From positions 1 to 64,000 of the forward strand of contig NZ_SMNA01000011.1 of the NCBI RefSeq assembly GCF_004353825.1: 64,000 bases of DNA. The letters are read 5' to 3'. Positions 12,957 to 28,886 of this stretch are shown piece by piece. The stretch's first letter is position 1. Each line of letters opens with the position of its first letter. Source of the stretch: Occultella glacieicola. GTDB lineage: Bacteria > Actinomycetota > Actinomycetes > Actinomycetales > Beutenbergiaceae. The notes beneath the pieces were generated by a model. The model saw only the letters and a list, made by a program, of their open reading frames with translations. It searched no databases and was not told the DNA's origin. Both the position numbers and the translations under genes were made by a program.

Positions 12957-13016
12957 TCTACAGCGCTGTAGAACGGGAAGTCCAGAGGCTCGGGAGGGCA
13001 ATCTCTAGCGCTGTAC
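12957..13016. promoter_or_regulatory. LacI-type operator(s) for the sulfatase unit
   Basis: Perfect 16-bp palindrome TCTACAGCGCTGTAGA (12957-12972) and a weaker copy CTAGCGCTGTAC (13005-13016). Confidence 0.75.
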
Positions 13017-13040
13017 CGATACCCGCCGACGGCCGAGCGC

Positions 13041-13069
13041 GGTCGGGCCGACGAAATGCCGGCCCGACC
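13041..13069 (-). terminator. Hairpin downstream of the FMN reductase gene
   Basis: GGTCGGGCCG-N9-CGGCCCGACC perfect 10-bp stem. Confidence 0.6.
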
Positions 13070-13083
13070 CGCCGCGCGCGGAC

Positions 13084-13659
13084 TCAGGCTCCGGCGTGGG
13101 TCCGCGCCGTCGCGAGGGCGAGCCGCAGCGCCTCGTCACCGGCGCGGCCGATCCGCTCGGCCAGGGCCGGCGTGGCGGTTCCGGCCACCCCGAAGTCGTC
13201 CGTGGAGGCGTACACCGCCGTCGGGGCGATCAGCGCGCCGAAGTAGGCGAACAGCGGTCGCAGGGCCTGATCGATCGCGAGCTGGTGCCGTGAGGATCCG
13301 CCGGTGGCGCCGAGCAGCACACTCTTGCCCCGCATCGCGACCGGGTCCACGAGGTCAAGGAAGGCCTTGAAGATGCCCGCGTACGAGCCCCGGAACACCG
13401 GGCTCGCCGCGATCAGCAGATCCGCACCCTCGACGGCGCGCAGGGCCTCGTCCAGCGCGGGGCTGGGCAGACCGAGCACGGTCGCGTTCGCGACGTCGAC
13501 CGCATGCTCGCGCGCCTCGACGGTGCGCAGATCGACCTCGACGCCTGCGGTCGTCGCGGCCTCGGCGACGGCGGCGAGCAGGTCGTCGGTCAGGGTCCGG
13601 GTGGTCGAGGGGAAGCCGACGCCGCCGGTGAGGGCGACGATCTTCAGGGTCCGGCTCAT
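13084..13659 (-). CDS. NAD(P)H-dependent FMN reductase (CE1759-like)
   Basis: IAASPVFRGSYAGIFKAFLD, LGATGGSSRH, LRPLFAYF; in an operon with an LLM. Confidence 0.88.
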   Translation of the reverse strand: MSRTLKIVALTGGVGFPSTTRTLTDDLLAAVAEAATTAGVEVDLRTVEAREHAVDVANATVLGLPSPALDEALRAVEGADLLIAASPVFRGSYAGIFKAFLDLVDPVAMRGKSVLLGATGGSSRHQLAIDQALRPLFAYFGALIAPTAVYASTDDFGVAGTATPALAERIGRAGDEALRLALATARTHAGA

Positions 13660-14144
13660 GAGGATCGGAGCTCCGTTCGGGTACGAGTCGTGGGGGTGGT
13701 GGTGGGGGCGTCGGACACGGCGGCCCGCAGCCGCTCGCAGATGCGGGTCAGGGCGGCCTGGTCGTCGTCGTCGAGCCCGGCGTCGACGAGCGCCGCGATG
13801 TGACGCACGTGCCGCCGTCCGATCTGCTTCTGCAGCAGCGCCCCCGCGTCGGTGAGGACGACGACCACGCCGCGACCGTCGTCGTCGGCCTCCCGCCGGG
13901 CGACCAGCCCGGCACCGGCGAGCCGGTCGACCATCCGCGACAGACTCGGTTGCGAGATCAGCAACCGGGCGTTCAGGTCGCGAAGGCGAGCGGCGCCGTC
14001 GGGCATCCGGGAGAGGTTGAACAGCACGTCGTACTCGCGTGAGCTGAGCGGCTCGAAGTCCTTCGCAGCCTCGAACCGCTGCATCAGCGTGACCTGCGTG
14101 CGGAACAGCGACTCCCACGCCGTCGCGGCGGTCCGGGTGGTCAT
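13656..14144 (-). CDS. MarR-family regulator
   Basis: EYDVLFNL, ISQPSLSRMVDRLAGAGLVAR, DDGRGVVVVLTDAG winged HTH; 4-bp overlaps on both sides. Confidence 0.9.
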   Translation of the reverse strand: MTTRTAATAWESLFRTQVTLMQRFEAAKDFEPLSSREYDVLFNLSRMPDGAARLRDLNARLLISQPSLSRMVDRLAGAGLVARREADDDGRGVVVVLTDAGALLQKQIGRRHVRHIAALVDAGLDDDDQAALTRICERLRAAVSDAPTTTPTTRTRTELRSS

Positions 14145-15286
14145 GACGCGGTGCGGCCGGTGACGGTGTCCTTGACGACCTCGCCCTGGGTGACGTCGGT
14201 GAGGTCGACCTCAGCACCCCTGGCCGCGACCAGCGCCGCGTGCGTGGGGCCGTCCGGCACGTGCGCCGGCCGGTTCTTCGCGAACTCGGCGCGCAGCGCC
14301 GGAACCACCTCGCCGCCGAGCAGGTCGAGTTGCTCGAGCACGGTCTTCAGCGGCAGGCCGGCGTGGTCCATCAGGAACAGTTGGCGCTGGTAGTCACCGA
14401 AGGACTCGCGGAACTCGAGGGTCTTGTCGATGACCTCCTGCGGGCTGCCGACGGTCAGCGGGGTGGCATCGGTGAACTCCTCCAGCGAGGGGCCGCCGCC
14501 GTAGACCGGCGCGTTGTCGAAGTACGGCCGGAACTCGCGCACGGCGTCCTGGGAGTTCTTGCGCATGAACACCTGCCCGCCGAGGCCGACGATCGCCTGG
14601 TCGGCACTGCCGTGCCCGTAGTGCTCGAAGCGCTGGCGGTACAGGCCGATCAGCTGCTTGAAGTGCTCCTTGGGCCAGAAGATGTTGTTCGCGAAGAAGC
14701 CGTCGCCGTAGAACGCGGCGAGCTCGGCCACCTGCGGGGAACGGATCGAGCCGTGCCACACGAACGGGGCGACGCCGTCGAGCGGGCGCGGGGTGGACGT
14801 GAAGCCCTGCAGCGGGGTGCGGAACCGGCCCTCCCAGTCCACCACCTCCTCGTCCCACAGCTGGCGCAGGAGCTGGTAGTTCTCCACGGTCAGCGGGATC
14901 GCCTGGCGGATGTCCTTGCCGAACCAGGGGTAGACCGGGCCGGTGTTGCCGCGGCCGAGCATCAGGTCCGCGCGACCGTCGGAGACGTGCTGGAGCATCG
15001 CGAAGTCCTCGGCGATCTTCACCGGGTCGTTCGTCGTGATCAGGGTCGTCGAGGTGGACAGGATGATCTTCGACGTCTGCGCGGCGAGGTAGCCGAGCAT
15101 CGTGGTCGGCGAGGAGGGGACGAACGGCGGGTTGTGGTGCTCCCCGGTGGCGAACACGTCCAGGCCGACGTCCTCGGCGTGCTTGGCGATCGTCAGGATC
15201 GCCTTGATCCGTTCGCCCTCGGTGGGGGTCTGGCCGGTGGTCGGGTCGGTGGTGACGTCCCCGACGGTGAAGATCCCGAACTGCAT
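14141..15286 (-). CDS. Luciferase-like (LLM class) flavin-dependent monooxygenase (CE1758-like)
   Basis: MQFGIFTVGD, ATGEHH, DPVKIAEDFA, GRADLMLGRG; GAGGAGG RBS. Confidence 0.92.
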   Translation of the reverse strand: MQFGIFTVGDVTTDPTTGQTPTEGERIKAILTIAKHAEDVGLDVFATGEHHNPPFVPSSPTTMLGYLAAQTSKIILSTSTTLITTNDPVKIAEDFAMLQHVSDGRADLMLGRGNTGPVYPWFGKDIRQAIPLTVENYQLLRQLWDEEVVDWEGRFRTPLQGFTSTPRPLDGVAPFVWHGSIRSPQVAELAAFYGDGFFANNIFWPKEHFKQLIGLYRQRFEHYGHGSADQAIVGLGGQVFMRKNSQDAVREFRPYFDNAPVYGGGPSLEEFTDATPLTVGSPQEVIDKTLEFRESFGDYQRQLFLMDHAGLPLKTVLEQLDLLGGEVVPALRAEFAKNRPAHVPDGPTHAALVAARGAEVDLTDVTQGEVVKDTVTGRTAS

Positions 15287-15305
15287 CTGAACTCCTCCTC
15301 GATCT

Positions 15306-15321
15306 TCATGCATTTGCATGA
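15306..15321. promoter_or_regulatory. Palindrome, candidate MarR operator
   Basis: TCATGCA-TT-TGCATGA about 20 bp upstream of the LLM start in an AT-richer patch. Confidence 0.6.
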
Positions 15322-15460
15322 TTCCAAGGGCTTCAACGTACGACGGCGTCAGGTATTCCCGGATGATGGCTCGCCGCTCGAACGCGAGGTTGTTGGCCCC
15401 GATCCGAGGAGACAGGCCAATAAACTTGCGTTCGAGCGCGACCCACAGCCGGACGGTCGG

Positions 15461-17032
15461 TCAGGGGCGGGCGTTCTCGAAGACGTCGGCCACCTCGGCC
15501 AGGGAGCGGATCAACTCGGGCAGCCGGGACCGGCGGGTGGCGTACCCGGCGACCAGGTCCGCGGACACGGGGACCTGAGTGCCGCCGTCGACCCCTCCCT
15601 CACCGCCGGGACCACCGACCGCCTGCAGCGCGGTGGCCAGGTCGGCGGCGCCGTCGAGGGCGTACCAGCCGAGGGCGGCGGCACCGAGGGCGGTGCCGCC
15701 CGCGTCGGAGGCGATCGCGAACGGCCGCCCGATCGTGGCGGCCATGACCTGGCGCCACAGCTGGGCCCGGAACGGCCCGCCGGTGGCCCGCACGGCCCGT
15801 ACCGGCGCGGTCGCGTCCAGCAGGTCGACGATGGTGGCGACCTGCAGGCACACGCCCTCGACCGCGGCCCGCAGGAAGTGGGCCCGGCCGTGATGGTGGC
15901 GCACCCCGAGGAAAGCGCCGGTCAGGTCCGGGTCCCACAGCGGCGCCCGTTCGGAGAGCACGTACGGAAGCATGACGAGTCCGTCCGCGCCGGCCGGGAC
16001 CTGGGTCGCGAGCGCGAGCAGTTCGGTGTCCGCGTGGCCGTGGGTGAGCAGGTCCGGAGTGAACGTCTCCCCCGCCCACCGCAGCGTGATACCGCCGTTG
16101 CTGACGGCCCCGCCGAGCACCCACAGGTCCTCGGTGAGCGCGTAGCAGAACAGCCGGCCGGCGTCGTCGGTGACCGGGCCGTTCACCGCCATCCGGACGG
16201 CCCCGCTGGTGCCGAGGGACAACCCGGCGATGCCCGGCGTGATCGCACCGGTGCCGAGGTTCCCGAGCGGGCCGTCCGCCGCGCCGACCGCCACCGGCAG
16301 GCCCGCGGTCAGGCCGGTGGCATCGGCGACCTCCGCGGCCAGCGGCAGGGTGGCGGTGGTCGGCAGCACCTCCGGCAGCTGGTCGGCGCTGATCCCGGCC
16401 AGGGCCAGCGCCTCCGGGGACCAGGCGCGCGAGTGCACGTCGAACAGCCCGGTGGCCGAGGCGCTGGAGAGTTCGGTGACCAGGTGACCGGTCAGGTGCT
16501 CCAGGACGAGGTCCTTCAGGCCGATCCACCACCGGGCCCGCGCGACCAGGTCCGGCTCGTGCCGGCCGAGCCACCTGAGCTTGACCAGCGGGCTCATCGG
16601 GTGCACCGGGGTGCCGGTCAGCCGGAGCAGCTCCGCGCCACGACCGGCCGCGCGCAGTTCCCGGGCCTGCGGTGCCGAACGGGCGTCGGCCCACGTGATC
16701 AGCGGGGTCAGTGGCACCGAGTCGGCGCCGAGCCCGATCAGCCCGTGCATGGCGGTGGACACAGACACCCCGAGGATCCGCCGACCGTCCAGCGAGGCGA
16801 CGACGTCCGCGAGGGCCGCGTCGATCGCGGCCAGGATGGCGGCCGGGTCCTGCACCTGCCAGCCCGGGTGGGGCTGCTCGAGCCGGTACTCGCGCAGCGC
16901 CTCCGCGGCCGCGGCCCCCACGGCCGTGGCGGACCGGCCCGCCCCGGTCGCGTCGGCCACCTCGAAGGCGGCCACCTTCGCGGCCGTGGTGCCGACGTCG
17001 AGACCGATCAGCACCGGGAGCGGGCCCGCCAT
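15461..17032 (-). CDS. gntK: FGGY-family carbohydrate kinase, probable gluconokinase
   Basis: IGLDVGTTAAK, STAMHGLI, TGTPVHPMSPLVKL, DGPLGNLG, GTSGAVR, LFCYAL, ERAPLW, typical of Bacillus-type GntK. Confidence 0.8.
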   Translation of the reverse strand: MAGPLPVLIGLDVGTTAAKVAAFEVADATGAGRSATAVGAAAAEALREYRLEQPHPGWQVQDPAAILAAIDAALADVVASLDGRRILGVSVSTAMHGLIGLGADSVPLTPLITWADARSAPQARELRAAGRGAELLRLTGTPVHPMSPLVKLRWLGRHEPDLVARARWWIGLKDLVLEHLTGHLVTELSSASATGLFDVHSRAWSPEALALAGISADQLPEVLPTTATLPLAAEVADATGLTAGLPVAVGAADGPLGNLGTGAITPGIAGLSLGTSGAVRMAVNGPVTDDAGRLFCYALTEDLWVLGGAVSNGGITLRWAGETFTPDLLTHGHADTELLALATQVPAGADGLVMLPYVLSERAPLWDPDLTGAFLGVRHHHGRAHFLRAAVEGVCLQVATIVDLLDATAPVRAVRATGGPFRAQLWRQVMAATIGRPFAIASDAGGTALGAAALGWYALDGAADLATALQAVGGPGGEGGVDGGTQVPVSADLVAGYATRRSRLPELIRSLAEVADVFENARP

Positions 17033-17039
17033 CGCCGAG

Positions 17040-18422
17040 CTACTCCTGGATCGTCGCGGCCTGCGCCACGACGGCCGCGACCAGGTCGGCGTCCGCGCCC
17101 AGGCCCGCCTGCAGGGTGTTCAGCACCGCCGGCACCACCTCGGCGAGGTCACCGGAGTTCGCGGCGTCCTGCGCCGGACCGGCGCCGGGGTCCTTGACCG
17201 GGGCACCGACACCGCGCAGGTGCAGCACCCACCCGGCCAGGGTGGTCGCGGCGCCGACGGGGACGCGCCCCGCGGCTCGTTCGGCGTTCAGGGTGGGCAG
17301 GGTCCGCACCGGGAGCTTCTGCGAGCCGTCGTTGGCGATCTGGGCGAGCAGGTGGCGTACCCGTTCGTTGCGGTACCGGTCCAGGAGCGCGGCCCGGTAG
17401 GCGCTCACGTCCTCGTCCGGTAGGCCGAGGTTGGCCTGTGCCTCGTCCCAGAACTGCTCCACCCAGGCCAGGCACCTGGGGTCGGCGATGGCCTGGTCGA
17501 TGGTCGTGTGGCCGCGGACGCTGCCCACGTAGGCGAGCTGGGAGTGCGACCCGTTGAGCAGCCAGAGCTTGCGCCGTTCGTGCGGGGCCACGTCGTCGAC
17601 GATCTTCACGCCGGCGTCCTCCCAGCGGGGCCGGCCGGCCGGGAACGTGCCCGAGACGACCCACTCGCTGAACGGCTCGGTCGGCACCGGGGAGGCGTCG
17701 TCGTAGCCGCGCTCGGCCGCCACGTGCTCCCGGTCCTCGGGGGTGGTGGCCGGGGTGATCCGGTCCACCATCGAGGTGGCGAAATCGACGTTGGCCGTGG
17801 TCCAGTCCACCAGGGACTCGTCCACGAGCGCGGCGAGCTCGGTGACCAGGGTGCGGGTCACCGCGCCGTTCTCCGGCAGGTTGTCGCAGGACAGGATCGT
17901 CAGCGCACCGGCGCCGGCGGCCCGGCGGGCGAGCAGCCCGGCGACCAGCTTCGCCGGCATCGTGGTGACGGAGGAGCGCGGGTCCTCGCGCAGCGCCTCG
18001 ACGTCTGCGAGCACCTCCGGACGCCGGGCGTCGAGGTGGTCGCCGTCGCCGCGCACGTACCCGTGCTCGGTCACGGTCATCGTCACGATGGCCAGCGCCG
18101 GGTCGGCCAGGTAGCCGAGGTAGGCGTCCTGCTCCGACGCGGCATGCACGGCCGACAGGGACCCGATCAGCTCGTAGTCGTCACCCTCCCGGCCGCGCAC
18201 GATCAGCGTGTACAGCCCGTCCTGCGGGCCCAGTGCCTCCGCCTGGTCCGGGCGGCGGCCGGTGAAGGCCGCGATCCCCCACTCGCCGGCGTCCGGGGCG
18301 TGGTGGGTGTACCAGGCCTGGTGCGCGCGGTGGAAGTTGCCCACGCCGAGGTGCACGATCCGCACCGGCGCGGCGGCCGGGGCGTCGGGTAGGGACCGGG
18401 ACAGACGAGGGGTCGCACTCAC
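17040..18422 (-). CDS. Mannitol dehydrogenase family, probable fructuronate reductase (UxuB-like)
   Basis: IVHLGVGNFHRAHQA, SCDNLPENG, SMVDRITP, TEPFSEWVV, KLWLLNGSHS; overlaps uxaC. Confidence 0.85.
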   Translation of the reverse strand: MSATPRLSRSLPDAPAAAPVRIVHLGVGNFHRAHQAWYTHHAPDAGEWGIAAFTGRRPDQAEALGPQDGLYTLIVRGREGDDYELIGSLSAVHAASEQDAYLGYLADPALAIVTMTVTEHGYVRGDGDHLDARRPEVLADVEALREDPRSSVTTMPAKLVAGLLARRAAGAGALTILSCDNLPENGAVTRTLVTELAALVDESLVDWTTANVDFATSMVDRITPATTPEDREHVAAERGYDDASPVPTEPFSEWVVSGTFPAGRPRWEDAGVKIVDDVAPHERRKLWLLNGSHSQLAYVGSVRGHTTIDQAIADPRCLAWVEQFWDEAQANLGLPDEDVSAYRAALLDRYRNERVRHLLAQIANDGSQKLPVRTLPTLNAERAAGRVPVGAATTLAGWVLHLRGVGAPVKDPGAGPAQDAANSGDLAEVVPAVLNTLQAGLGADADLVAAVVAQAATIQE

Positions 18423-19837
18423 AGCTTGAACACCTTTCGCGGGTTGTTCGCCACCAGGTCGGTGATGGCCTCGAACGCCTCATCCTCGGGGAGCCGGTGC
18501 TCGGTGACCAACTTGGCGATGTACCCGGCGTCCAGGCGGCGGCTCATGTCGTGCCGGGCCGGGATCGAGCAGAACGCGCGGGTGTCGTCGATGAAGCCGG
18601 ACGTGCGGGAGAACCCAGCGGTCTCGGTCACCGCGGACCGGAACCGCTGGATGGCCTCCGGGGCATCGATGAACCACCACGGCACGCCCACGTACACCGA
18701 CGGGTAGAACCCGGCCAGCGGCGCGAGCTCACGCGAATAGACGGTCTCGTCGATGGTGAACAGCACCAGGTGCAGGTTCGGGTGCGTGCCGTAGGCGTTC
18801 AGCAGCGGCCGCAGGGCATCGGTGTACTCGACCGCGATCGGGATGTCGCAGCCGACGTCGGCGCCGTAGGTCTGATGAGTGGGTGTGTGGTGGTTGCGGC
18901 GCACGCCCGGGTGGATGGTCATGACCAGGCCGTCGTCGCAGGACATCCGGGCCATCTCCGAGAGCATGTGCCGACGGAACGCGGTGGTCTCCTCGGCCGT
19001 GGCCGACCCGGCGCGGGCGGCGGCGAAGATCCGGCTCGCCTCCGCCTCGGAGAGGATGTCGGTGCGGGCGTCGATGACGCCGTGGTCCGCGGAGACGGCG
19101 CCGTGGTCGACGAAGTACCGACGGCGGTTCTCGAGCGCGCCGATGTAGCCGGCGTAGTCGCCGGTGCCGACCCCGGAGACCTCGCCGAGACGGTCCACGT
19201 CGGCGGTCCAGGTGGCCAGCGCGGGGTCCAGGTACTTGTCGGGGCGGAACGTCGGGACCACGCGGCGCGTGAACGAGGCGTCCTGGGCGAGCGCCTCGTG
19301 CGCGGACAGGTCGTCGCACGGATCGTCGGTGGTGGCCATCACCGCGATGTCGAAGGCGTCCATCAGGGCGCGCGGGCGGAACTGCGGGGTCGCGATCTTC
19401 GCGGCGATCTGGTCGTAGATCGCGTCTGCGGTCTCCGCGCTCGGGCGCTGCGTGACCCCGAAGATCAGGCCAAGCTCGTCCTCGAGCCAGTACCGGACCG
19501 GGGTGCCCCGGTAGGCGGACCAGTTCGAGCACAGGATCCGGAACGCGGCGCGGGCGTCGTCCTCCGAGAGCGGGCCGCGGCCGACGCCGAGGTCCGCGAG
19601 CGAGGCCCCGTGCGCGTGCAGCATCCGGTTCACGTAGTGGTCCGGGGTGATCAGCAGCGAGGTCGGGTCCCGGAACGGGATGTCCTCGGCGATCCACTGC
19701 GGCGGCACGTGACCGTGCGGGGAGATGATCGGCAGCTCCTTGACGGAGTCGTAGAGCCGGCGTGCGACGGACCGCTGGGAGGGGTCCGCGGGGAGCAGGC
19801 GATCGGGGTGGACGTCAAGGGCTGCGGTGGCTGACAT
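18419..19837 (-). CDS. uxaC: Glucuronate isomerase
   Basis: PIISPHGH, PDHYVNRML, TTDDPCDDL, PTFRPD, WWFIDA, GFIDDTRAFCSIPARHD. Confidence 0.95.
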   Translation of the reverse strand: MSATAALDVHPDRLLPADPSQRSVARRLYDSVKELPIISPHGHVPPQWIAEDIPFRDPTSLLITPDHYVNRMLHAHGASLADLGVGRGPLSEDDARAAFRILCSNWSAYRGTPVRYWLEDELGLIFGVTQRPSAETADAIYDQIAAKIATPQFRPRALMDAFDIAVMATTDDPCDDLSAHEALAQDASFTRRVVPTFRPDKYLDPALATWTADVDRLGEVSGVGTGDYAGYIGALENRRRYFVDHGAVSADHGVIDARTDILSEAEASRIFAAARAGSATAEETTAFRRHMLSEMARMSCDDGLVMTIHPGVRRNHHTPTHQTYGADVGCDIPIAVEYTDALRPLLNAYGTHPNLHLVLFTIDETVYSRELAPLAGFYPSVYVGVPWWFIDAPEAIQRFRSAVTETAGFSRTSGFIDDTRAFCSIPARHDMSRRLDAGYIAKLVTEHRLPEDEAFEAITDLVANNPRKVFKL

Positions 19838-19869
19838 GGTCCTCATCCTCTCGGACCGACCGCCACGGT

Positions 19870-19895
19870 TGGCAACCCGTTGCCAGGTGTTGCCA
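19870..19895. promoter_or_regulatory. Operator upstream of uxaC
   Basis: TGGCAACCCGTTGCCA near-palindrome plus a second GTTGCCA 10 bp further on. Confidence 0.75.
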
Positions 19896-19912
19896 CGTCG
19901 GACCGTGGTCGG

Positions 19913-20920
19913 TCACGCTTCGATGGCGCTGGTGGACTCGCGCACCACGAGCTTGGTGGGCAGCACCACGGCCTCGGTGGAGCGGGACTGGGCCCCGCGC
20001 GAGATCGCGAGCACGTTGCGCGCCGCGGTCACCCCGAGGGAGTGCAGCGGCGAGGCGACCGTGGTCAGCGCGGGGGTCACGATCTCGGAGAGGTTCGAGT
20101 TGTCGAACCCGACCACGCTCACGTCCCGCGGCACCTGACCCCCCATGGCCCGCACCCCGCGCATGAATCCGATCGCCATCTGGTCGTTGTAGGCGACCAC
20201 CGCGCTCGTGCGCTGGCGGGCCCACTCGGCGGCCGCCGCGACACCGCCGTTGACGGTCGGCGGGTACGGGCCGACGCGACGGACCCGCAGCTCGAGCTCC
20301 ATGCCGGCCTCCCGCAGGCCCCGCCAGCGCATCCCGTCCGCCCAGGACGCCTCCGGGCCGGCCAGGTAGCAGACCTGCTCGTGTCCGAGTTCGCCGAGAT
20401 GCTCGGCCGCCCGCCGCATCCCGCGCAGATTGTCCGTGACCACGCTGGGGACCCCGGTGACCACGCGGTTCAGCACGATCACCGGCTTGACCTTCGCGAT
20501 CTGACGGATCGCCGAGTCCGACATCCGCGAGCTCGTCAGGACGATCCCGTCCACCGTGGACAGGGCCCGCTCCAGGACCGCCCGCTCCCGCTCCGCGGAC
20601 TCCTGCGTCTCGGCCAGCAGCATCGTGTAGCCGGCCTCGTAGGCGGCAAGCTCGGCACCCCGGACCACCTCGAAGAACACCGGGTTCGTCACGTCCGCGA
20701 GGATCACCGCGATCATGGACGTGCGGGTGGTGGACAGGGCGCGCGCCTGCGGGTTCGCCCGGTACCCGAGTTCGGCGGCGACCGCGCGGATCCGCTCGGC
20801 GGTCTCGGCGTTCACCCGCCCGGGCCTGGAGAAGGCCCGCGAGACGGTCGACGGCGCGACCCCGGCGGCCTTCGCGACGTCGTAGATCGTGGTGGATCGG
20901 CCTCCCGGCGGCGCTGCCAC
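19913..20920 (-). CDS. LacI-family regulator of the hexuronate cluster
   Basis: TIYDVAKAAGVAPSTVSRAF HTH, YRANPQARAL, VVGFDN; TAGACT -10 box 6 nt before the GTG (leaderless). Confidence 0.92.
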   Translation of the reverse strand: MAAPPGGRSTTIYDVAKAAGVAPSTVSRAFSRPGRVNAETAERIRAVAAELGYRANPQARALSTTRTSMIAVILADVTNPVFFEVVRGAELAAYEAGYTMLLAETQESAERERAVLERALSTVDGIVLTSSRMSDSAIRQIAKVKPVIVLNRVVTGVPSVVTDNLRGMRRAAEHLGELGHEQVCYLAGPEASWADGMRWRGLREAGMELELRVRRVGPYPPTVNGGVAAAAEWARQRTSAVVAYNDQMAIGFMRGVRAMGGQVPRDVSVVGFDNSNLSEIVTPALTTVASPLHSLGVTAARNVLAISRGAQSRSTEAVVLPTKLVVRESTSAIEA

Positions 20921-20941
20921 GCGGCGAGTCTAGGAGGAACT

Positions 20942-20965
20942 GCAACAAGTGGCAACCGCTTGCCG
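20942..20965. promoter_or_regulatory. Operator in the divergent lacI/isomerase promoter
   Basis: TGGCAACCGCTTGCCG (20950-20965) with an extra GCAAC 10 bp upstream. Confidence 0.7.
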
Positions 20966-21063
20966 TCCGGGTGGGTCGCTGACTGAATGGAGGAACCGGA
21001 CGCTGGCGCGCCCCGACGTCGACGTCCCGACCGAACCGCCACCCGAACCAGGAGCGATGACCC

Positions 21064-21891
21064 ATGTGGACCCTGTCCGGATTCTCCGATGAGATCTCAC
21101 CCGACCTTCAGGTGCAGGCCTCGACCGCGAAGGACCTCGGCCTGACCCATATCGAGTTCCGCAGCGCGTGGAACACGAACGTGCTCGATCTGGATGCCGA
21201 TCAGTTGGCCGAGGCGAAGCGCATCCTGGACGACCACGGCCTCAAGGTCTCCAGCATCGGCTCCCCGATCGGCAAGATCTTCATCGACTCCGACTTCGGC
21301 CCGCACCTGGACCGGATGCGTCACGCCGCGAAGGTGGCCGAGCACTTCGGCGCCCCGTTCATCCGGATCTTCTCGTTCTACCTGCGTCCGGGCACCGACC
21401 CGGCCTCGGTGCGCGACGAGGTCATCACCCGGATCCGCGCCCTCGCCGAGGTGGCCGCCGAAGCGGGTGTGGTCCTGCTGCACGAGAACGAGAAGGAGAT
21501 CTACGGAGACATCCCGGAGCGCTGCCTCGACATCGTGGAGTCGGTCGACTCCCCCAACCTGCGCCTGGCCTGGGACTCCGCGAACTTCGTCCAGGTCGGC
21601 GTGCGTCCGTTCAGCGACGGGTACGCGATGCTGCGCCCGCACGTGGTCTACATCCAGATCAAGGACGCCCACCTCGCGAACGGCGAGGTGGTCCCGGCCG
21701 GCCGCGGCGACGGCGAGCTGCTGGACACCGTCCGCGCGCTGCGCAGCGACGGTTTCGACGGGTTCTTCTCCCTCGAGCCGCACCTGAGCCAGGCCCACAG
21801 CCTCGGCGGCTTCTCCGGTCCCGAACTGTTCACCGAGGCATGGCAGGCTTTCACCGACATGCTCAAGGCCGAAGAGATCCCCTTCGCCTGA
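21064..21891 (+). CDS. Sugar phosphate isomerase/epimerase (AP endonuclease 2-like TIM barrel)
   Basis: LLHENE, WDSANF, IQIKDA, FSLEPH metal-ligand pattern. Confidence 0.85.
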   Translation: MWTLSGFSDEISPDLQVQASTAKDLGLTHIEFRSAWNTNVLDLDADQLAEAKRILDDHGLKVSSIGSPIGKIFIDSDFGPHLDRMRHAAKVAEHFGAPFIRIFSFYLRPGTDPASVRDEVITRIRALAEVAAEAGVVLLHENEKEIYGDIPERCLDIVESVDSPNLRLAWDSANFVQVGVRPFSDGYAMLRPHVVYIQIKDAHLANGEVVPAGRGDGELLDTVRALRSDGFDGFFSLEPHLSQAHSLGGFSGPELFTEAWQAFTDMLKAEEIPFA

Positions 21892-21925
21892 GCGGCCACG
21901 CACGATCTATCGACTGGAGAAACCT

Positions 21926-22954
21926 GTGCCAACGGCGGCGGTCATCGGCTGCGGTGACATCTCGATCGTCCATCTCGAAGCCATCTCCTCACTCGGCGCG
22001 GAGCTCGTCGCCGTGGCGGACACCGACGCCGACCTCGCGCACGCGACCGGTGCCCGCCTCGGGGTCGCGGCCTTCACCGATCACCGACGCCTGCTCGCCG
22101 AGGTCCGCCCGGACGTGGTGCACGTGTGCACCCCGCACGACCAGCACGTGAACGTCGCCCTCGACGCGATCGAGGCCGGAGTGCACGTGATCACCGAGAA
22201 GCCGCTGGCGCACACGATCGCCGACGGTGAGCGACTCGTCGCCGCGGCCGAGGGAGCCCCGGTCAAGGTGGGCGTCTGCCTGCAGAACCGGTACAACGCC
22301 CCGAACGCCCGGATGAAGGAACTGCTCGACTCCGGCGAGCTCGGCGCGGTCCTGGGTGCCTCCGCCGGGGTCTACTGGCATCGGAACGCCGCCTACTACG
22401 AGGCGAAGCCGTGGCGGGGCACCTGGGCGCGCAGCGGCGGTGGCCTGCTGATCAACCAGGCCATCCACACGGTGGACCTGCTCCAGTGGCTGCTCGGCGA
22501 CGTCGAGCAGGTCCGCGGCCACGCGGCCACCCACGTGCTCGGTGACGCGATCGAGGTCGAGGACACCGCCGAGCTGATCCTGGACCACTCCGGCGGCGCC
22601 CGGTCCGTCATGTTCGCCACGAACGCGCACTCGGTGAACGCCCCGGTGTTCGTCGAGGTCCTCACCGAGCAGGCCACCCTGACCATGCGCGGCGACCTGC
22701 GGGTGCACTACACCGACGGACGCACCGAACACGTCGCCGAGCGCACCGCGACCTCGAGCGGACGGGCGTACTGGGGCCTGTCCCACGAGCTCCTGATCGG
22801 TGACTTCTACGCCAGGCTCGACGAGCCGGAGCCGTTCTGGATCTCGCCCGCCGAGGCGGCGAAGTCCCTCGCGATCCTGAAGAGCATCTACGCGCAGTCC
22901 CCTGACCTGGGCGCGCCCGCCGAGGCGGTCCCGCTGACCGCGGGCCGGCGCTGA
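21926..22954 (+). CDS. Gfo/Idh/MocA-family oxidoreductase
   Basis: AVIGCGDIS, CTPHDQH, EKP, GGGLLINQAIHTVD. Confidence 0.9.
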   Translation: MPTAAVIGCGDISIVHLEAISSLGAELVAVADTDADLAHATGARLGVAAFTDHRRLLAEVRPDVVHVCTPHDQHVNVALDAIEAGVHVITEKPLAHTIADGERLVAAAEGAPVKVGVCLQNRYNAPNARMKELLDSGELGAVLGASAGVYWHRNAAYYEAKPWRGTWARSGGGLLINQAIHTVDLLQWLLGDVEQVRGHAATHVLGDAIEVEDTAELILDHSGGARSVMFATNAHSVNAPVFVEVLTEQATLTMRGDLRVHYTDGRTEHVAERTATSSGRAYWGLSHELLIGDFYARLDEPEPFWISPAEAAKSLAILKSIYAQSPDLGAPAEAVPLTAGRR

Positions 22955-23090
22955 GGGCGACGCGGAACTGAGACGGTCGCGCCCCGGCGCGGTCCGCGTG
23001 CCACGATCTAGACCAACCGCCCACACCCTCCCCGACGCGGCGTGTCGGGCCGATCCGAACCTCACCCACACACCCGGAAGGACACCCACA

Positions 23091-24536
23091 ATGAGTTCGT
23101 CCCCCAGCGCGACCGCACAGGTCGGCGTCGTCGGACTGGCGGTCATGGGCCGCAACCTCGCGCGCAACTTCGCCAATCACGGGCACACCGTGGCCCTGTA
23201 CAACCGCACCCAGGCGCGCACCGACGACCTGATGGCGGCCCACGGCAGCGACGGCAACTTCGTGCCCGCCACCTCCGTCGAGGAGTTCGTGGCCAGCCTG
23301 GAGCGCCCGCGCCGGATCATCCTGATGGTCCAGGCCGGTGCCGGCACCGACGCCTCGATCGAGTCGCTGCTGCCCTACCTCGAGGAGGGTGACATCGTCG
23401 TCGACGGCGGCAACGCCAACTACGAGGACACCCGGGTCCGCGAGGAGAACCTGCGCGCGAAGGGTCTGCACTTCTTCGGCGTCGGCATCTCCGGCGGGGA
23501 GGAGGGCGCCCTGAACGGCCCGTCGATCATGCCGGGTGGCTCCAAGGAGGGCTACGCCCAGATCGGCCCGCTGCTGGAGGACATCTCCGCGAAGTACGAA
23601 GGCGAGCCCTGCTGCGCCTACATCGGGCCCGACGGTGCCGGCCACTTCGTCAAGATGGTGCACAACGGCATCGAGTACGCCGACATGCAGTTCATCGCCG
23701 AGGCCTACGACGTGCTGAAGGCCGCCGGCCTGGACACGAAGGCGATCTCGGACGCGTTCCGCGAGTGGAACACCGGCGACCTCGACTCGTTCCTGATCGA
23801 GATCACCTCCGAGGTGCTCGACCAGGTGGACGCGAGCACCGGCAAGGCGCTCGTCGACGTGATCAGGGACGCCGCCGGCCAGAAGGGCACCGGCCGCTGG
23901 ACGGTCCAGAACGCCCTCGAGCTCGGGGTGCCGGTGAACACCATCGCCGAGTCCGTGTTCGCCCGCTCGGTCTCCGGGCACGCGGACCTGCGGGCCGCCG
24001 GACAGGCGAGCCTGACCGGCCCGGACCAGACCTTCACGCCCGACGACGTCGCCACCCTGGTCGAGGACGTGCGCCAGGCGCTGTGGGCGTCCAAGGTGAT
24101 CGCGTACGCGCAGGGTCTCGACCTGATCCGCACCGGCAGCATCCAGTACGGCTGGGACATCGACGTGGCCGAGGTCGCGAAGATCTGGCGCGCCGGCTGC
24201 ATCATCCGGGCCCGCCTGCTCGAGCGGATCCGCTCCGAGTACGCGGCCGGGAACCTGCCGACGCTGCTCGCCGCGCCGAGCATCAGCGAGGGCCTGGCCA
24301 ACGCCCAGAAGGGCTGGCGCCGGGTGGTCGCCGACGCGACGTTGGCCGGGGTGCCGGTGCCGGGCTTCGCGAGCGCGGTGTCGTACTACGACTCGGTTCG
24401 CGCCGAGCGCCTGCCCGCGTCCCTGATCCAGGGTCTGCGGGACTTCTTCGGTGCCCACACCTATCAGCGCGTCGACGTCGACGGCACGTTCCACACCGAG
24501 TGGTCCGGCGATCGCTCGGAGACGAAGGAAGCCTGA
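23091..24536 (+). CDS. gnd: NADP-dependent 6-phosphogluconate dehydrogenase (decarboxylating)
   Basis: GLAVMGRN, ISGGEEGA, GHFVKMVHNGIEY, QKGTGRWT, WRAGCIIRA, RDFFGAHTY; ATG after AAGGA. Confidence 0.96.
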   Translation: MSSSPSATAQVGVVGLAVMGRNLARNFANHGHTVALYNRTQARTDDLMAAHGSDGNFVPATSVEEFVASLERPRRIILMVQAGAGTDASIESLLPYLEEGDIVVDGGNANYEDTRVREENLRAKGLHFFGVGISGGEEGALNGPSIMPGGSKEGYAQIGPLLEDISAKYEGEPCCAYIGPDGAGHFVKMVHNGIEYADMQFIAEAYDVLKAAGLDTKAISDAFREWNTGDLDSFLIEITSEVLDQVDASTGKALVDVIRDAAGQKGTGRWTVQNALELGVPVNTIAESVFARSVSGHADLRAAGQASLTGPDQTFTPDDVATLVEDVRQALWASKVIAYAQGLDLIRTGSIQYGWDIDVAEVAKIWRAGCIIRARLLERIRSEYAAGNLPTLLAAPSISEGLANAQKGWRRVVADATLAGVPVPGFASAVSYYDSVRAERLPASLIQGLRDFFGAHTYQRVDVDGTFHTEWSGDRSETKEA

Positions 24537-24539
24537 CCC

Positions 24540-25406
24540 ATGGGGCACGGACCCACGCTGAGCATCCTCACGCCGGGCCAGATCGAGGCCGGCGCCCAGC
24601 GGGTCCGTGCCCTCCTGGCGGGGACCGGGCCGCTCGGCGTCGCCTACTCCGGCGGCGTCGACTCCACGGTGCTGCTGGCCCTGGCGGTGCAGGCCCTCGG
24701 CCGCGAGGACGTGGTCGCGATCCTCGGCATCTCGCCGAGCCTCGCGGGCGACGAACGGACGGCGGCCCACGAGGTCGCGGACGTCATCGGTGCGCGGGTG
24801 GTCGAGGTGCACACCCACGAGGGTGAGAACCCGGACTACCAGCGCAACGACGTCGACCGCTGCTTCTTCTGCAAGGACGAGCTGTTCAACCGGATCTCGG
24901 ACGACGTGGTCGCCGAGCACGGCCTGGTCAGCGTCGCCTACGGGGAGAACGCCGACGACGCCAAGCGCCCGGACCGGCCCGGCGCGCAGGCCGCGACGAA
25001 CCACCGGGTGCTGCGCCCGCTCAGCGAGGCCGGCGTGGACAAGGCGATGGTCCGGGCGATCGCCCGGTCCCTCGGCCTGCCCAATGCGGACAAGCCCGCC
25101 GCCCCGTGCCTGGCCTCGCGGATCCCGCACCACCAGGAGGTCACCCCGGCCAAGCTGGGACAGATCGAGACCGTCGAGGCCGGCCTGCGCCGGCTCGGGT
25201 TCGCCGACTCCCGGGTGCGTCACCACGGCGAGATCGCGCGGCTGGAGCTTCTCGCCCAGGACATCCCGCGGGCCACGGAGCCGGGACTGCGCGAGCAGAT
25301 CCAGGAACTCGTGACCGGCGCCGGGTTCGCGTTCGCGGCCGTGGACCTCAAGGGGATCCAGTCCGGTGCGTTCACGATGGCGCTGGTCGAGGGCCGCGGT
25401 GCCTGA
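24540..25406 (+). CDS. larE: ATP-dependent sulfur transferase of nickel-pincer cofactor synthesis
   Basis: AYSGGVDS PP-loop, RCFFCK, DRPG, KPAAPCLASRIP, RVRHHGEIARLE. Confidence 0.9.
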   Translation: MGHGPTLSILTPGQIEAGAQRVRALLAGTGPLGVAYSGGVDSTVLLALAVQALGREDVVAILGISPSLAGDERTAAHEVADVIGARVVEVHTHEGENPDYQRNDVDRCFFCKDELFNRISDDVVAEHGLVSVAYGENADDAKRPDRPGAQAATNHRVLRPLSEAGVDKAMVRAIARSLGLPNADKPAAPCLASRIPHHQEVTPAKLGQIETVEAGLRRLGFADSRVRHHGEIARLELLAQDIPRATEPGLREQIQELVTGAGFAFAAVDLKGIQSGAFTMALVEGRGA

Positions 25407-26199
25407 GGCCTGGACTCCCCCGCCGGAGCTGAGCCGGCTCGCCGATCTGGACCACGACCGGGGCGCCCGTCGCGGCTACCCGGAGGCGGTCTACTGCGAG
25501 GGCAAGAGCGTCGAGCAGGTCCGCCTGATCGCGGCCGCCTACGCCGCCCGGCACAACCCACCGCAGCGCACCCCGGCCCGCCCCACCCCCGCCGAGAGTG
25601 CTGAAACGGCAGCCACCACCGCACTCCCACCGCAGCCCACCTCGGCCGTGCTGTTCACCCGGGCGAGCGCCGAGCACGCCGCCGCCGTCCTGGCCGAGCT
25701 GCCGGACGCCGTCGACGACCGCGAGGCGCGGCTGGTCGCGTGGCCGCCGACGCCGCCGGAACCGACCGGCGGACTCGTGGTCGTGGCCGCGGCCGGGACC
25801 TCCGACCTGTCGGTGGCTCGCGAGGCCGAGCTCACCGCCCGCTACCTGGGCCGGCGCACCGTGCTGGTCATGGACGTCGGGGTCGCCGGACTGCACCGGG
25901 TGCTGGCCCGGCTCGACCTGCTCCGCTCCGCCGCGGCGATCGTGGTGGTGGCCGGCATGGACGGTGCGCTCCCGGCCGTCGTCGCCGGCCTGGTGAGCGC
26001 CCCCGTCGTCGCGGTTCCGACGTCCGTCGGGTACGGCGCGGCGTTCTCGGGCCTGGCCCCGCTGCTGTCGATGCTGAACGCGTGCGCACCGGGTGTGGGG
26101 GTCGTCAACATCGACAACGGCTACGGCGGCGGCCACCTGGCCGCCCAGATCGCGGCCACCGCGGGGCCGGGCGACGGCACCGCAGGTGAAACTCGGTAG
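25399..26199 (+). CDS. larB: Nickel-pincer cofactor biosynthesis carboxylase/hydrolase
   Basis: DLDHDRGARRGYPEAVYCEGK, AGTSD, DVGVAGLHR, AGMDGALP, PTSVGYG, MLNACAPG, VNIDNGYGG; GTG overlaps the larE end. Confidence 0.9.
   Translation: MPEAWTPPPELSRLADLDHDRGARRGYPEAVYCEGKSVEQVRLIAAAYAARHNPPQRTPARPTPAESAETAATTALPPQPTSAVLFTRASAEHAAAVLAELPDAVDDREARLVAWPPTPPEPTGGLVVVAAAGTSDLSVAREAELTARYLGRRTVLVMDVGVAGLHRVLARLDLLRSAAAIVVVAGMDGALPAVVAGLVSAPVVAVPTSVGYGAAFSGLAPLLSMLNACAPGVGVVNIDNGYGGGHLAAQIAATAGPGDGTAGETR
25593..25633 (+). repeat. Degenerate copy of the REP-like element inside larB
   Basis: 33/41 ungapped identity to 4842-4882. Confidence 0.75.
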
Positions 26200-26257
26200 C
26201 ATGATCCGCAGCCACGCGATCCGCGGTGGCTGACCACACCCTTCCAGGATGGAGAAC

Positions 26258-26428
26258 ATGGGCGCCACCGGCGACTATGACAGTACCGACGACACCGGGT
26301 CCGGCGAGCAGCCGACGGCCTCCGATACGGAGAGTCACAGACCCTGGCCCGGACCGGACAATGACGATCCGGAGGGCCATCATCCCGGGCCTCGCGGCCC
26401 GCTGACCCGCGAGGCGGCCGTCCGATGA
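26258..26428 (+). CDS. Possible 56-aa upstream ORF coupled to the CNNM gene
   Basis: GGAG-N3-ATG at 26258, open frame to a TGA overlapping the next ATG (ATGA); low complexity, no recognisable family. Confidence 0.3.
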   Translation: MGATGDYDSTDDTGSGEQPTASDTESHRPWPGPDNDDPEGHHPGPRGPLTREAAVR

Positions 26429-27843
26429 CGGAGGTCGCACTCCTCCTGTTCGCCATGGTGCTCGTCGCGGCATGCGGTGGGTTCGTGGCCGCGGAGTTCG
26501 CGCTGGTCACCGTGCCCCGGGCCACCGTCGAACATGAGGCGGCCGCCGGGGACCGTAAGTCCCAGGGCGTCCTGACCGCCCTGCGCAGCCTGTCGACACA
26601 ACTGTCCGGAGCGCAGCTCGGGATCACCGTCACCAACCTTGGCATCGGGTTCCTCGCAGAGCCCGCCATCGCGCGCCTGGTCAGCCCGGGGCTCGAGAAC
26701 GCGGGCCTGACGGCGTCCGGGGCCTCATCGGTCGCGCTCGCGATCGCGCTGGTGCTCGCCACCTCGATCACGATGATCTTCGGCGAGCTGGTGCCGAAGA
26801 ACCTCGCGATCGCGGCTCCCCTCGCCACCGCCCGCGCCGTGGCCGGGTTCCAGCGTGGCTTCACGAAGGCGACTGCCTGGCCGATCCGGTTCTTCAACGG
26901 CACCGCGAACGCGATCCTGCGCCGCCTCGGCATCGAGCCCCAGGAGGAGCTGGCCTCGGCCCGCTCGGCCGAAGAACTCTCCGCGCTGGTGCGCCACTCC
27001 GCGAACTCCGGCACCCTCGCCGAGGACACCGCCGAGCTCGTGGAGCGCTCGCTGGCGTTCGGGGACCGCCGGGCCCGGGACGCGATGACGCCCCGGTCCC
27101 AGATGATCAGCCTGCGTCCGCAGGACAGTCTCGACGTGCTGATCACCACCGCGAAGGAGTCCGGCCACTCCCGGTTCCCGGTGATCGAGGTGATCCAGGA
27201 GAACGGGCACACCGAGATCGACGTGCTCGGCCTGGCGCACGTGCGCGGCGCCCTGGCGGTGCCGTTCGAGCAACGGGCGCACACCCCGGTGTCCACGGTG
27301 GTCACGGACGCGACGCTGGTGCCCGACTCCCTGGAGCTGGACGAGCTGCTCGACGACCTGCGCGCCGGCGGCCTGCAGATGGCCCTCCTGATCGACGAGT
27401 TCGGCTCCCTGGCCGGGCTGGTCACGCTCGAGGACCTCGTCGAGGAGATCGTCGGCGAGGTTCGCGACGAGCACGACACCGACGAGTTCGTCCCGGCCGC
27501 GGACGCGGACGGGAGCTGGCACCTGCCCGGCCTGATGCGGGTCGACGAGGCGAGCGAACGGCTCGGCGTCGAACTGCCCGAGGACGAGGCCTACGACACC
27601 CTCGGTGGGCTGGTCGCGGACGAGTTGGGCCGGCTCGCGGCCGTCGGCGACAGCATCGAGCTGGTCAGCGCGCAGGTGCCCGGCGAGGACCGGCAACGGC
27701 TCCGCGTGGACGTGCTCGAGCTCGACGGGCACCGCGTGGAGTCGGTCCGCATCGCCGTGCTCGGACCGGTCGACCCCGACGACGACGAGCCACCCTCGTC
27801 CAACCGGGGCGACCACGCGAGCGAGCGGGAGGACCACCGGTGA
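26425..27843 (+). CDS. Hemolysin-family CNNM (DUF21)-CBS-CorC protein
   Basis: FVAAEFAL, AQLGIT, FGELVPKN, GHSRFPV, IDEFG, VTLEDLVEEIVGE, YDTLGGL. Confidence 0.92.
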   Translation: MTEVALLLFAMVLVAACGGFVAAEFALVTVPRATVEHEAAAGDRKSQGVLTALRSLSTQLSGAQLGITVTNLGIGFLAEPAIARLVSPGLENAGLTASGASSVALAIALVLATSITMIFGELVPKNLAIAAPLATARAVAGFQRGFTKATAWPIRFFNGTANAILRRLGIEPQEELASARSAEELSALVRHSANSGTLAEDTAELVERSLAFGDRRARDAMTPRSQMISLRPQDSLDVLITTAKESGHSRFPVIEVIQENGHTEIDVLGLAHVRGALAVPFEQRAHTPVSTVVTDATLVPDSLELDELLDDLRAGGLQMALLIDEFGSLAGLVTLEDLVEEIVGEVRDEHDTDEFVPAADADGSWHLPGLMRVDEASERLGVELPEDEAYDTLGGLVADELGRLAAVGDSIELVSAQVPGEDRQRLRVDVLELDGHRVESVRIAVLGPVDPDDDEPPSSNRGDHASEREDHR

Positions 27844-28886
27844 GCGCCGCCGTCGGGATCCCCCTGACCCTCGCCCTGCTGGCCCTGAACGCGTTCTTCG
27901 TGGGCGCCGAGTTCGCGCTGATCTCCGCCCGCCGCACGAAGATCGAACCGCTCGCCCTCGAGGGTTCCCGCCGCGCCCGGATCACGCTGAGCGCGATGGA
28001 GCGGGTCTCGATGATGATGGCCGGTGCGCAGCTGGGCATCACGATCGCCTCGCTCGCGCTCGGGTCGATCAGCGAACCGGTCATCGCGCACCTGCTCGAG
28101 GTGCCGTTCGAGGCGATCGGCGTTCCGGACGCCCTGGTCCACCCGATCTCGTTCGCGATCGCCCTGTCCCTGGTCACCTACCTGCACGTGGTGCTCGGCG
28201 AGATGGTGCCCAAGAACATCGCCCTGGCCGGCCCGGAGCGGATGGCGATGGCGCTCGCGCCGCCGCTGACCGTCATCGTACGGGTCCTGTTCCCGCTGCT
28301 GTGGGTGCTGAACGCGCTCGCGAACCTGATCCTGCGCATGATGCGGGTGCAGCCACGCGATGAGGTGGCGAGCACGTTCACGCGGGACGAGGTCGCCTCG
28401 TTGGTCACGGAGTCCCGTTCCGGGGGGCTGATCGAGCTCAACGACGAACGCCTGCTGATGGGCGCCCTGCAGTTCTCGGACCGGGACGTGCGGTCCGTGC
28501 TGCTGCCCATGGCGACGCTGCGGACGCTGCCCGAGGGGGCCAGCCCGGCGACCGCGGAGTCGGTCTCGGTGGAGGGCTTCTCCCGGTTCCCGCTGCGCCG
28601 CCCGGACGGGTCGCTGAGCGGCTACGTGCACATCAAGGACCTCCTCGAGACCGACCCGCTGCTCCGGGAACGTCCGGTGCCGGCCGACGTGGTGCGGACC
28701 CTGCCGGACGTGCGGGCCACCGACTCGCTGCGGTCAGTGCTCGCCGCGATGCAGGGCAGCGGCGCGCATCTGGCGCAGGTCCGCGACACCGACGGCGCCC
28801 CGCTCGGCGTGGTCACGCTGGAGGACGTGCTCGAGGAACTGGTCGGCGTGATCCGGGACGACTCCCGGCGGCTGCCGGCGCGCTGA
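27840..28886 (+). CDS. Hemolysin-family CNNM-CBS protein lacking the CorC domain
   Basis: FFVGAEFAL, AQLGIT, LGEMVPKN, GFSRFP, VTLEDVLEELVG; GTGA overlap. Confidence 0.92.
   Translation: MSAAVGIPLTLALLALNAFFVGAEFALISARRTKIEPLALEGSRRARITLSAMERVSMMMAGAQLGITIASLALGSISEPVIAHLLEVPFEAIGVPDALVHPISFAIALSLVTYLHVVLGEMVPKNIALAGPERMAMALAPPLTVIVRVLFPLLWVLNALANLILRMMRVQPRDEVASTFTRDEVASLVTESRSGGLIELNDERLLMGALQFSDRDVRSVLLPMATLRTLPEGASPATAESVSVEGFSRFPLRRPDGSLSGYVHIKDLLETDPLLRERPVPADVVRTLPDVRATDSLRSVLAAMQGSGAHLAQVRDTDGAPLGVVTLEDVLEELVGVIRDDSRRLPAR

Follow-up and report, generated by a model that had tools for sequence, protein, structure and literature searches.

The window analysed here comprises the first 64,000 nucleotides of contig C2 of Occultella glacieicola, whose high-GC actinomycete genome (5.34 Mb, 23 contigs) is rated 100% complete. 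Its subject is a cluster of glucuronate genes that also carries larE and larB, two genes of nickel-pincer cofactor biosynthesis. The gene for the nickel insertase, larC, is absent from the genome, and the only LarA protein, encoded on another contig, falls within LarA group 18, in a small sub-branch that mostly occurs without larC. The sequences make it just about probable that LarA of this sub-branch takes the LarB/LarE product, pyridinium-3,5-bisthiocarboxylic acid mononucleotide (P2TMN), directly and without LarC, within a route from glucuronate to the pentose phosphate pathway. The sugar pathway itself is known, and all that the genome contributes to it is a further group of hosts; the larC-independent LarA sub-branch would be new as a variant of the system.

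Conservation of larA, larB and larE without larC

No larC match, whole or half, was found in the genome with PF01969, TIGR00299 or tblastn using the LarC of a relative (best E 1.6), while the models were positive in six control genomes and PF01969 also finds half-genes elsewhere; a split or divergent larC was rejected within reach of these searches. An assembly gap was rejected because the deletion point lies inside the window and single-contig relatives are likewise without larC. The window is collinear at 76%–80% DNA identity (blastn) with the cluster of a genome from another genus, G009, except for two gaps (Table 1), the second of which runs from a break at window position 26157 to a resumption at 26363, against 438–2104 in L069, which holds larC. 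LarE and the LarB core are 75% and 85% identical to their G009 counterparts. G009 exemplifies the actinomycete group-19 clusters (uxaC, uxuB, lacI, larA19, larE, larB, and larC; compare GntE1 of Corynebacterium glutamicum); from the Occultella cluster, however, both larA19 and larC are deleted, whereas group-19 genomes keep larC in 22/22.

Of 36 genomes of the family, 20 have larA, and these same 20 have larB, whereas larC is confined to G009, which is also the sole larA-positive member with a group-19 LarA; with the sub-branch LarA, larC is found in 0/19. All nine sub-branch clusters fetched contain larE, and it is to these that family-wide statements on larE refer. A further 50 genomes with a sub-branch LarA, taken from 80 listed (those omitted being mostly members of the same family and short contigs), gave larB in 49 and a larC match in 17: 2/23 actinomycetes, 7/14 Acidobacteria, and 8/13 members of the Planctomycetes–Verrucomicrobia–Chlamydiae (PVC) phyla, several of these matches being halves or fragments. 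One of the two larC-positive actinomycetes (G045) also has a group-19 LarA, and in the other (G043) larC is cut off and unlinked. Where larA has larE or larB within the flank retrieved, larC is present in 0/21 genomes (Actinomycetota, Acidobacteriota, and Kiritimatiellota), as against 17/29 otherwise, and in Granulicella and Terriglobus a bare larA-larE-larB cassette of three genes occurs. Fisher values for this contrast are too strong, since related genomes do not count independently. A second LarA was tried as an explanation of the larC-positive carriers and accounts for them only in part (5/17, plus one fragment, versus 3/33, plus one fragment).

A class-wide control of 400 other actinomycete genomes, each at least 95% complete, contained 23 with a LarA, all of the group-19 type; larB was found in 22 and larC in the same 22—both genes being broken in one of them, G315—and the twenty-third genome lacks both. 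All larC counts given here cover the group-18 sub-branch and group 19, and not the main group-18 branch. When larC presence is placed on a quick LarA tree, it changes 10 times, with at least seven changes forced by strong branches, a pattern suggestive of repeated loss or gain.

Despite the lack of larC, the remaining genes are maintained. In five larC-less pairs the ratio of nonsynonymous to synonymous substitution rates (dN/dS) is 0.07–0.16 for larA, 0.12–0.26 for larE, and 0.13–0.26 for larB, compared with 0.08–0.22 for uxaC and 0.07–0.20 for gnd in the same pairs, uxuB lying in the same range as the lar genes; larA, larE, and larB are under purifying selection in larC-less genomes. This selection tells against the lar genes being a decaying relic, or against finished cofactor being taken up from neighbours, as does the retention of larB in 49/50 and 19/19 genomes with the sub-branch LarA, because larB would be pointless if finished cofactor were imported. 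Such a relic or uptake is very improbable, albeit consistent with truncated larC remnants in G043 and G070 and with frameshifts in four relatives—G011 and G004 for larA (L052 and L065), G024 and G006 for larB (L066 and L050)—where decay and sequencing error are not distinguishable. G011, whose larA is frameshifted, has full UxuA and ManD.

The partial larC genes comprise a C-terminal part in G070, apparently in frame behind larE (L223:5394-6725), a split pair on two contigs (L219:6321-7184 with G065:C2), and the truncated orphan of G043 (L217:6308-7129). Beside larC in Acidobacteria there are also aldo-keto reductases with Tat-like N termini (L204:8583-9599, L207:4919-5923, and L219:7312-8361; G064, G065, and G072), which are possible NphT-type cofactor users, the NphT fold being that of an aldo-keto reductase (PMC13524815).

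LarA and the route from glucuronate

A Lar_N (PF09861) search of the genome gave a single match, at G000:C1:60885-62207(+) (L002:12886-14208), outside the window. The protein scores 585.8 bits against a cut-off of 500 with NF052594, the model for LarA group 18, the 'putative hexonate epimerase' G2E3 (Desguin et al. 2020, PMC7583248), and shares with that group the signature D-R-H-H-E-V-K-H..W..N-K. Its predicted model (predicted local distance difference test score 95.8) has the two-domain LarA fold, with 4NAR, GntE2 of Thermotoga maritima, as the closest structure (E 4e-31 by sequence; template modelling score 0.79 by fold), followed by 2YJG, 9EIA, and 5HUQ. Residues for catalysis, cofactor binding, and hexonate specificity of LarA homologues are listed in PMC7583248. 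Placed via alignment to 4NAR and the Dataset S2 rows, D47, H82, H159, and K289 correspond to catalytic D72/H108/H174/K298, and R50, K169, and H185 to cofactor-binding R75/K184/H200; the hexonate signature is complete, with the EV loop (E160 and V161), the helix-11 tryptophan (W285), and W-x-x-N-K (N288 and K289). D47, R50, H82, H159, E160, V161, K169, H185, W285, and K289 are invariant in 51/51 sub-branch sequences. The group-19 motifs W-T-A-K-G and L-A-H-S-T-H are not found in the protein, which instead has W-V-A-N-K and A-H-L-V-H; it is 26% identical to the group-19 LarA of G009, 70% identical to a protein of Granulicella mallensis, a species listed in group 18 (PMC7583248), and 94%–95% identical to its closest named relatives, which are Occultella proteins.

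Of the 25 rows given for group 18 by Desguin et al. 2020, four (Terro_4320, AciPR4_3673, AciX8_0744, and Psta_1048) group with this LarA by motif. The sub-branch differs from the rest of group 18 in residues of its own, among them T78, Q81, H85, H155, H350, T418, and S420 (51/51) and C207 (49/51). None of these is found in more than 15% of 37 other group-18-like proteins, nor, for the columns listed, do they figure among the residues common in 24 group-19 proteins. Several of them, by sequence, flank catalytic histidines or sit in the substrate loop; His167 was dropped as a marker. Occurrence without larC is not discussed in the parts of PMC7583248 consulted.

From these identities we infer a route in which UxaC would convert glucuronate to fructuronate and the UxuB-like reductase fructuronate to mannonate; group-18 LarA would then yield gluconate, which the kinase and Gnd would pass via 6-phosphogluconate into the pentose phosphate pathway. 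Genes for UxaC, a UxuB-like reductase, GntE (LarA), a GntK-like kinase, and Gnd are all present in the one genome, uxuB and gntK as best matches under cut-off. This order of reactions had been suggested by a first-pass annotation of the window; it is plausible but not new, and the epimerase predicted there does exist. For T. maritima, gene context had led to the proposal of a hexuronate route via GntE (recounted in PMC6978723), GntE1 and GntE2 have been assayed, GntE2 being a mannonate/gluconate 2-epimerase, and the reaction is described as letting mannonate enter the pentose phosphate pathway (PMC7583248). A Phytophthora LarA is a third assayed GntE (PMC11770544) and, judging by a Phytophthora row in group 18, would belong to that group. 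The Occultella route resembles the UxaC/UxuB-GntE-GntK-Gnd route of T. maritima in reaction order and gene logic, whereas GntE2 is of another LarA group (20; in the fold alignment the two are 24% identical), both larC and uxuA are present in T. maritima (control searches), and gntE is unlinked in Occultella, although linked to the uronate genes in relatives.

Group 18 as tabulated in PMC7583248 (Table S1) shares the gnd and uxaC context. Among 18 loci picked for holding both larA and uxaC, larA stands head-to-head with uxaC-uxuB(-gntK) in 15, at a distance of about 110–150 bp, while the remaining three have it downstream in the same orientation. In 80 loci centred on a sub-branch larA, many of them incomplete at the edges, larB was found 31 times, larE 31, uxuB 22, uxaC 21, gnd 15, and a kinase 12. 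Group-18 LarA is also fused to a gluconokinase of the GntK/IdnK type in P0006, P0016, P0032, and P0040. UxaC occurs in 32/36 family genomes; of those without larA, 11/12 have ManD or full-length UxuA, whereas 9/20 with larA have no match to either, three of the nine being single-contig genomes that are 99%–100% complete, with ManD counted at E 1e-120, a threshold that remote dehydratases could escape. The context of larA, the kinase fusions, and the distribution of dehydratases therefore support the sequence mannonate to gluconate to 6-phosphogluconate, and the context and fusions make it likely that LarA is a mannonate/gluconate 2-epimerase.

Some further arrangements were seen. P0127 is also listed among the fusions of a GntK/IdnK-type gluconokinase to group-18 LarA, and in P0014 (823 aa) the fusion partner of group-18 LarA is a cellobiose 2-epimerase-like domain. 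In Kiritimatiellota and Propionibacteriales, gnd and larA/larE/larB repeatedly have a PfkB-family kinase as a neighbour (L137:906-2048, L140:831-1901, L111:17129-18199, and L085), which is a candidate third type of gluconate kinase.

Several findings count against this route, or at least against its being the only one. Although the cluster is devoid of uxuA, kdgK, and eda, as the first-pass annotation had it, and uxuA is missing from the genome as a whole, its 'dehydratase-free' catabolism applies to the cluster only. A ManD of the enolase family (NF043051, 693 bits versus a cut-off of 550) lies at C18:256759-257979(-) (L165), and C17:14434-16210(+) (L222:6427-8203) carries the gene for an Eda that scores over cut-off and, after it, one for a KdgK-like PfkB kinase, so a 2-keto-3-deoxygluconate (KDG) route in the strain has to be reckoned with. 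In addition, larA on C1 is surrounded by unrelated genes, unlinked to the uronate cluster, and no operator-like site was found upstream of it. Mannonate might then leave by ManD, KdgK, and Eda, with LarA, LarB, and LarE serving a side route or another sugar acid, fed in for example by the TIM-barrel and Gfo proteins of the cluster. Carriage of ManD by 4/4 genomes of the genus fits this explanation, as do a similar Pro-type ManD adjoining uxuB in G001 and the possibility that group 19 prefers another substrate (PMC7583248). It is nonetheless improbable: the ManD gene adjoins an unrelated ATP-binding cassette (ABC) sugar transporter outside the uronate cluster, while gnd, larE, larB, and the kinase all lie within the LacI-flanked cluster; larA-positive relatives with neither dehydratase exist; and the larC question would be left standing.

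Seventeen enolase-superfamily genes were found in the genome (L155-L171), most of them under the cut-off of any named family, with 15 of the 17 scanned for family. The eda-KdgK-like pair is divergent from a LacI gene, and a second aldolase lies about 2 kb further. An Ala/Pro column of ManD is said to mark activity; as a guide it was discarded, as it fails to distinguish larA-positive genomes from larA-negative ones.

A reversed order, in which the kinase phosphorylates mannonate and epimerisation takes place on 6-phosphomannonate, would follow the isomerase-phosphoketolase route of Lactobacillus suebicus (PMC6978723). That route likewise takes mannonate to 6-phosphogluconate without KDG, but has the kinase first and no epimerase gene assigned to it in that source. 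For Occultella this order is distinctly improbable, as the assayed GntE-type LarA enzymes are all reported to use free mannonate (PMC7583248 and PMC11770544) and the fused and neighbouring kinases include the GntK/IdnK gluconokinase type.

Least credible of all is that the LarB/LarE product is truly used by the TIM-barrel or Gfo protein, or that one of these two carries out the inversion at C2. Both genes do share an operon with larE and larB, and non-LarA folds are known to use the cofactor (PMC13524815); larB, however, tracks larA exactly (20/20), and the TIM-barrel/Gfo pair is missing from compact clusters. Either protein was rejected as the missing epimerase on the same grounds, the pair being dispensable, and searches of PDB and Atlas gave no substrate.

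Completion of the cofactor

In nickel-pincer biosynthesis by LarB, LarE, and LarC, as in L. plantarum, T. maritima, and M. thermoacetica, LarC counts as indispensable, and its presence as what best predicts that the cofactor is made (PMC13524815); PMC13510736 likewise takes LarC to be required; PMC12393405 concerns another subfamily. Occultella has an intact LarB and a [4Fe-4S]-type LarE but no LarC, although the first-pass annotation assumed a nickel-pincer cofactor. No report of larC-less larA/larB/larE systems was found in the literature searched, though lar-gene surveys, subscription reviews, and most supplements may mention genomes without larC.

With larB and larE present and larC missing, we infer that LarA would take the nickel-free precursor P2TMN instead of the finished nickel-pincer cofactor, and two versions share the likelihood of such direct use about half and half. 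In the first, P2TMN would serve as an NAD-like hydride carrier that has no nickel-carbon bond, either by itself or together with a different metal at His185; in the second, LarA would insert nickel itself, helped by the sub-branch residues His85, His155, His350, and Cys207. A slight preference goes to the nickel-free version, since dedicated nickel importers are mostly lacking too. It can be put only tentatively, as the less probable side of the matter, that nickel-free P2TMN (or a form with a metal other than nickel) is the working cofactor of a three-gene, nickel-independent system carried by the sub-branch across Actinomycetota, Acidobacteriota, and the PVC phyla. As to history, an incoming group-18 larA may have displaced the resident group-19 larA, after which larC would have been deleted from the operon.

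Nickel supply in larC-less genomes looks reduced. NiCoT was over cut-off in 0/5 family genomes and 1/5 other larC-less genomes, and CbiM/NikM in 0/5 larC-less genomes, whereas NiCoT or CbiM/NikM was found in 5/5 group-19 genomes; these samples are small and covered NiCoT and CbiM/NikM, not ABC-type importers. No urease, SodN, NikR, or convincing hydrogenase was found in the Occultella genome by motif search.

Variants of LarE or LarB are not supported as the cause, their motifs being alike in both sets and near-identical genes occurring together with larC in G009. As LarB and LarE show no visible difference between the sets, the distinction lies either with LarA or with some unlinked factor. 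The latter would be a protein unlike LarC that inserts nickel into a normal cofactor for the same pathway, and this is unlikely. A linked replacement insertase was rejected, no candidate being present in lar neighbourhoods: about 100 loci were clustered and 20 read gene by gene, with no recurring extra gene near the lar cassettes, although the clustering used crude open reading frame (ORF) calling, its largest cluster was an artefact of chained matches, and the search covered neighbourhoods only, so that an unlinked insertase would have escaped it. The three-gene cassettes of Granulicella and Terriglobus, the retention of larC by group-19 relatives, and the scattered branches in which larC is missing also argue against a substitute, which would therefore be needed in several phyla.

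Three points speak for an unlinked insertase, the first and third of them also against direct use of P2TMN. His185, the nickel ligand, and Lys169, the tether, never vary, which is what binding of the normal cofactor would predict; known C-H metallation needs cytidine triphosphate (CTP) and a dedicated enzyme (PMC13510736); and larC-positive and larC-negative carriers are not told apart by any residue of LarA (the best difference, 0.59, follows taxonomy). Should direct use be correct, this last result would imply that all members of the sub-branch share the ability and that larC persists wherever some other client depends on it. Also to be set against direct use are the larC matches among carriers of the same LarA, no second LarA having been found in 9/15 of the larC-positive non-actinomycete carriers; the frameshifts mentioned above; the many close kin and drafts among the larC-less genomes, whose counts are not independent; the behaviour of L. 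plantarum LarA, to which P2TMN is reported not to attach without nickel (PMC11796402); and the literature searched, in which no assayed member of the sub-branch was found.

Conserved larA, larB, and larE without larC would mean one of three new things: that the nickel-free pincer precursor works as a cofactor, that the enzyme forms its own nickel-carbon bond, or that a second, unrelated nickel insertase exists. Each bears on the role of nickel in pincer chemistry, and genome mining anchored on larC misses larC-less systems.

Gene order, regulation, and surroundings

Every gene named in the first-pass annotation was recovered intact and in place (ORF list and profile searches). Collinearity with G009, of another genus, and the repeated co-occurrence of uxaC, uxuB, gnd, larE, and larB in relatives show that the association of the cluster genes is more than chance.

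Table 1. Coordinates of the uronate-lar cluster and its sites in the window.
Feature	Position	Strand	Basis
FGGY carbohydrate kinase, likely gluconokinase (GntK-like)	15461..17032	-	TIGR01314 gntK_FGGY and PDB 3GBT matches
Mannitol-dehydrogenase-family reductase, likely fructuronate reductase (UxuB-like)	17040..18422	-	PF01232 and PF08125
Uronate isomerase UxaC	18419..19846	-	NF002794, 562 bits vs cut-off 387
Operator-like palindrome upstream of uxaC, predicted LacI site	19870..19885	.	Sequence match to GGCAACCNGTTGCC at 19871
Junction, empty here; group-19 larA between lacI and uxaC in G009	19892..19931	.	blastn collinearity
LacI-family regulator, absent from the first-pass gene list	19913..20920	-	PF00356 and PF13377
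Second operator-like site (20951, one-mismatch copy) overlapping sigma-70-like lacI promoter	20927..20964	-	
AP_endonuc_2 TIM-barrel sugar isomerase/epimerase, accessory	21064..21891	+	PF01261
Gfo/Idh/MocA oxidoreductase, accessory	21926..22954	+	PF01408 and PF22725
6-phosphogluconate dehydrogenase Gnd	23091..24536	+	TIGR00873, 660 bits vs cut-off 427
LarE sulfur insertase, three-cysteine ([4Fe-4S]-type) form	24540..25406	+	TIGR00268, 262 bits vs cut-off 150
LarB carboxylase/hydrolase	25399..26199	+	NF033503, 249 bits vs cut-off 175
Gap after larB, with neither larC nor a remnant of it here; larC in G009	26200..26424	.	blastn collinearity

The FGGY kinase is likely a GntK-like gluconokinase: its top NCBIfam match is gntK_FGGY (344 bits, under the 649 cut-off) and its top PDB match a gluconate kinase (3GBT, E 2e-78). 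No gntK-like gene was found in five clusters of genus g9 (L056, L058, L060, L062, and L066; 20 kb fetched). The reductase, whose gene overlaps the stop of the single-copy uxaC by 4 nt, scores 256 bits with the fructuronate reductase model NF011611 (cut-off 603) and similarly with D-arabinitol 4-dehydrogenase, and is likely a fructuronate reductase. PDB matches of the TIM-barrel protein are weak (best E 2e-8) and its Atlas neighbours are named to family level at most, while the Gfo/Idh/MocA protein has 3Q2K as its top PDB match (E 2e-42) and its gene also adjoins a group-19 larA in L237 and L241. Both accessory genes occur in the strain's own genus, genus g9, and G009, and likely work together to supply a second sugar acid or a keto-sugar. 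The gnd start is an ATG with a ribosome site, LarE conserves the PP-loop, CxxC, and third Cys, and the longest larB ORF opens at 25366, the GTG at 25399 overlapping the larE stop.

The lacI gene recurs across related clusters; like it, the two operator-like palindromes went unnoticed in the first-pass annotation. The uxaC-proximal palindrome is the sole perfect match to GGCAACCNGTTGCC in the genome and is probably bound by the LacI protein; operator-like sites with one mismatch are not specific, because 23 such strand-matches occur genome-wide. The putative sigma-70-like lacI promoter is the sole promoter-like site in 13000–29000, where 0.3 would be expected by chance.

Tandem CNNM/CorC (CBS-domain) transporter genes at 26425-28886(+) follow larB here and larC in G009, and may have a link to metal transport. 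On the other side, a CE1758-family luciferase-like monooxygenase, a MarR-like regulator, and a flavin mononucleotide (FMN)-reductase-like gene (13084-15319(-)) carry on along the strand of the uxa genes and have been retained in relatives; the group-19 context table likewise lists COG2141. Just outside the cluster lie a sulfatase, a sugar-binding lipoprotein, and a LacI gene (9021-13001(-)). Further off, a PIN-domain (VapC-like) gene read from sequence only adjoins leuS (8598-8987(+)), and a long repeat-rich gene at 33214-35694(+) ends in an HNH-like motif, being of the DUF222 type by eye.

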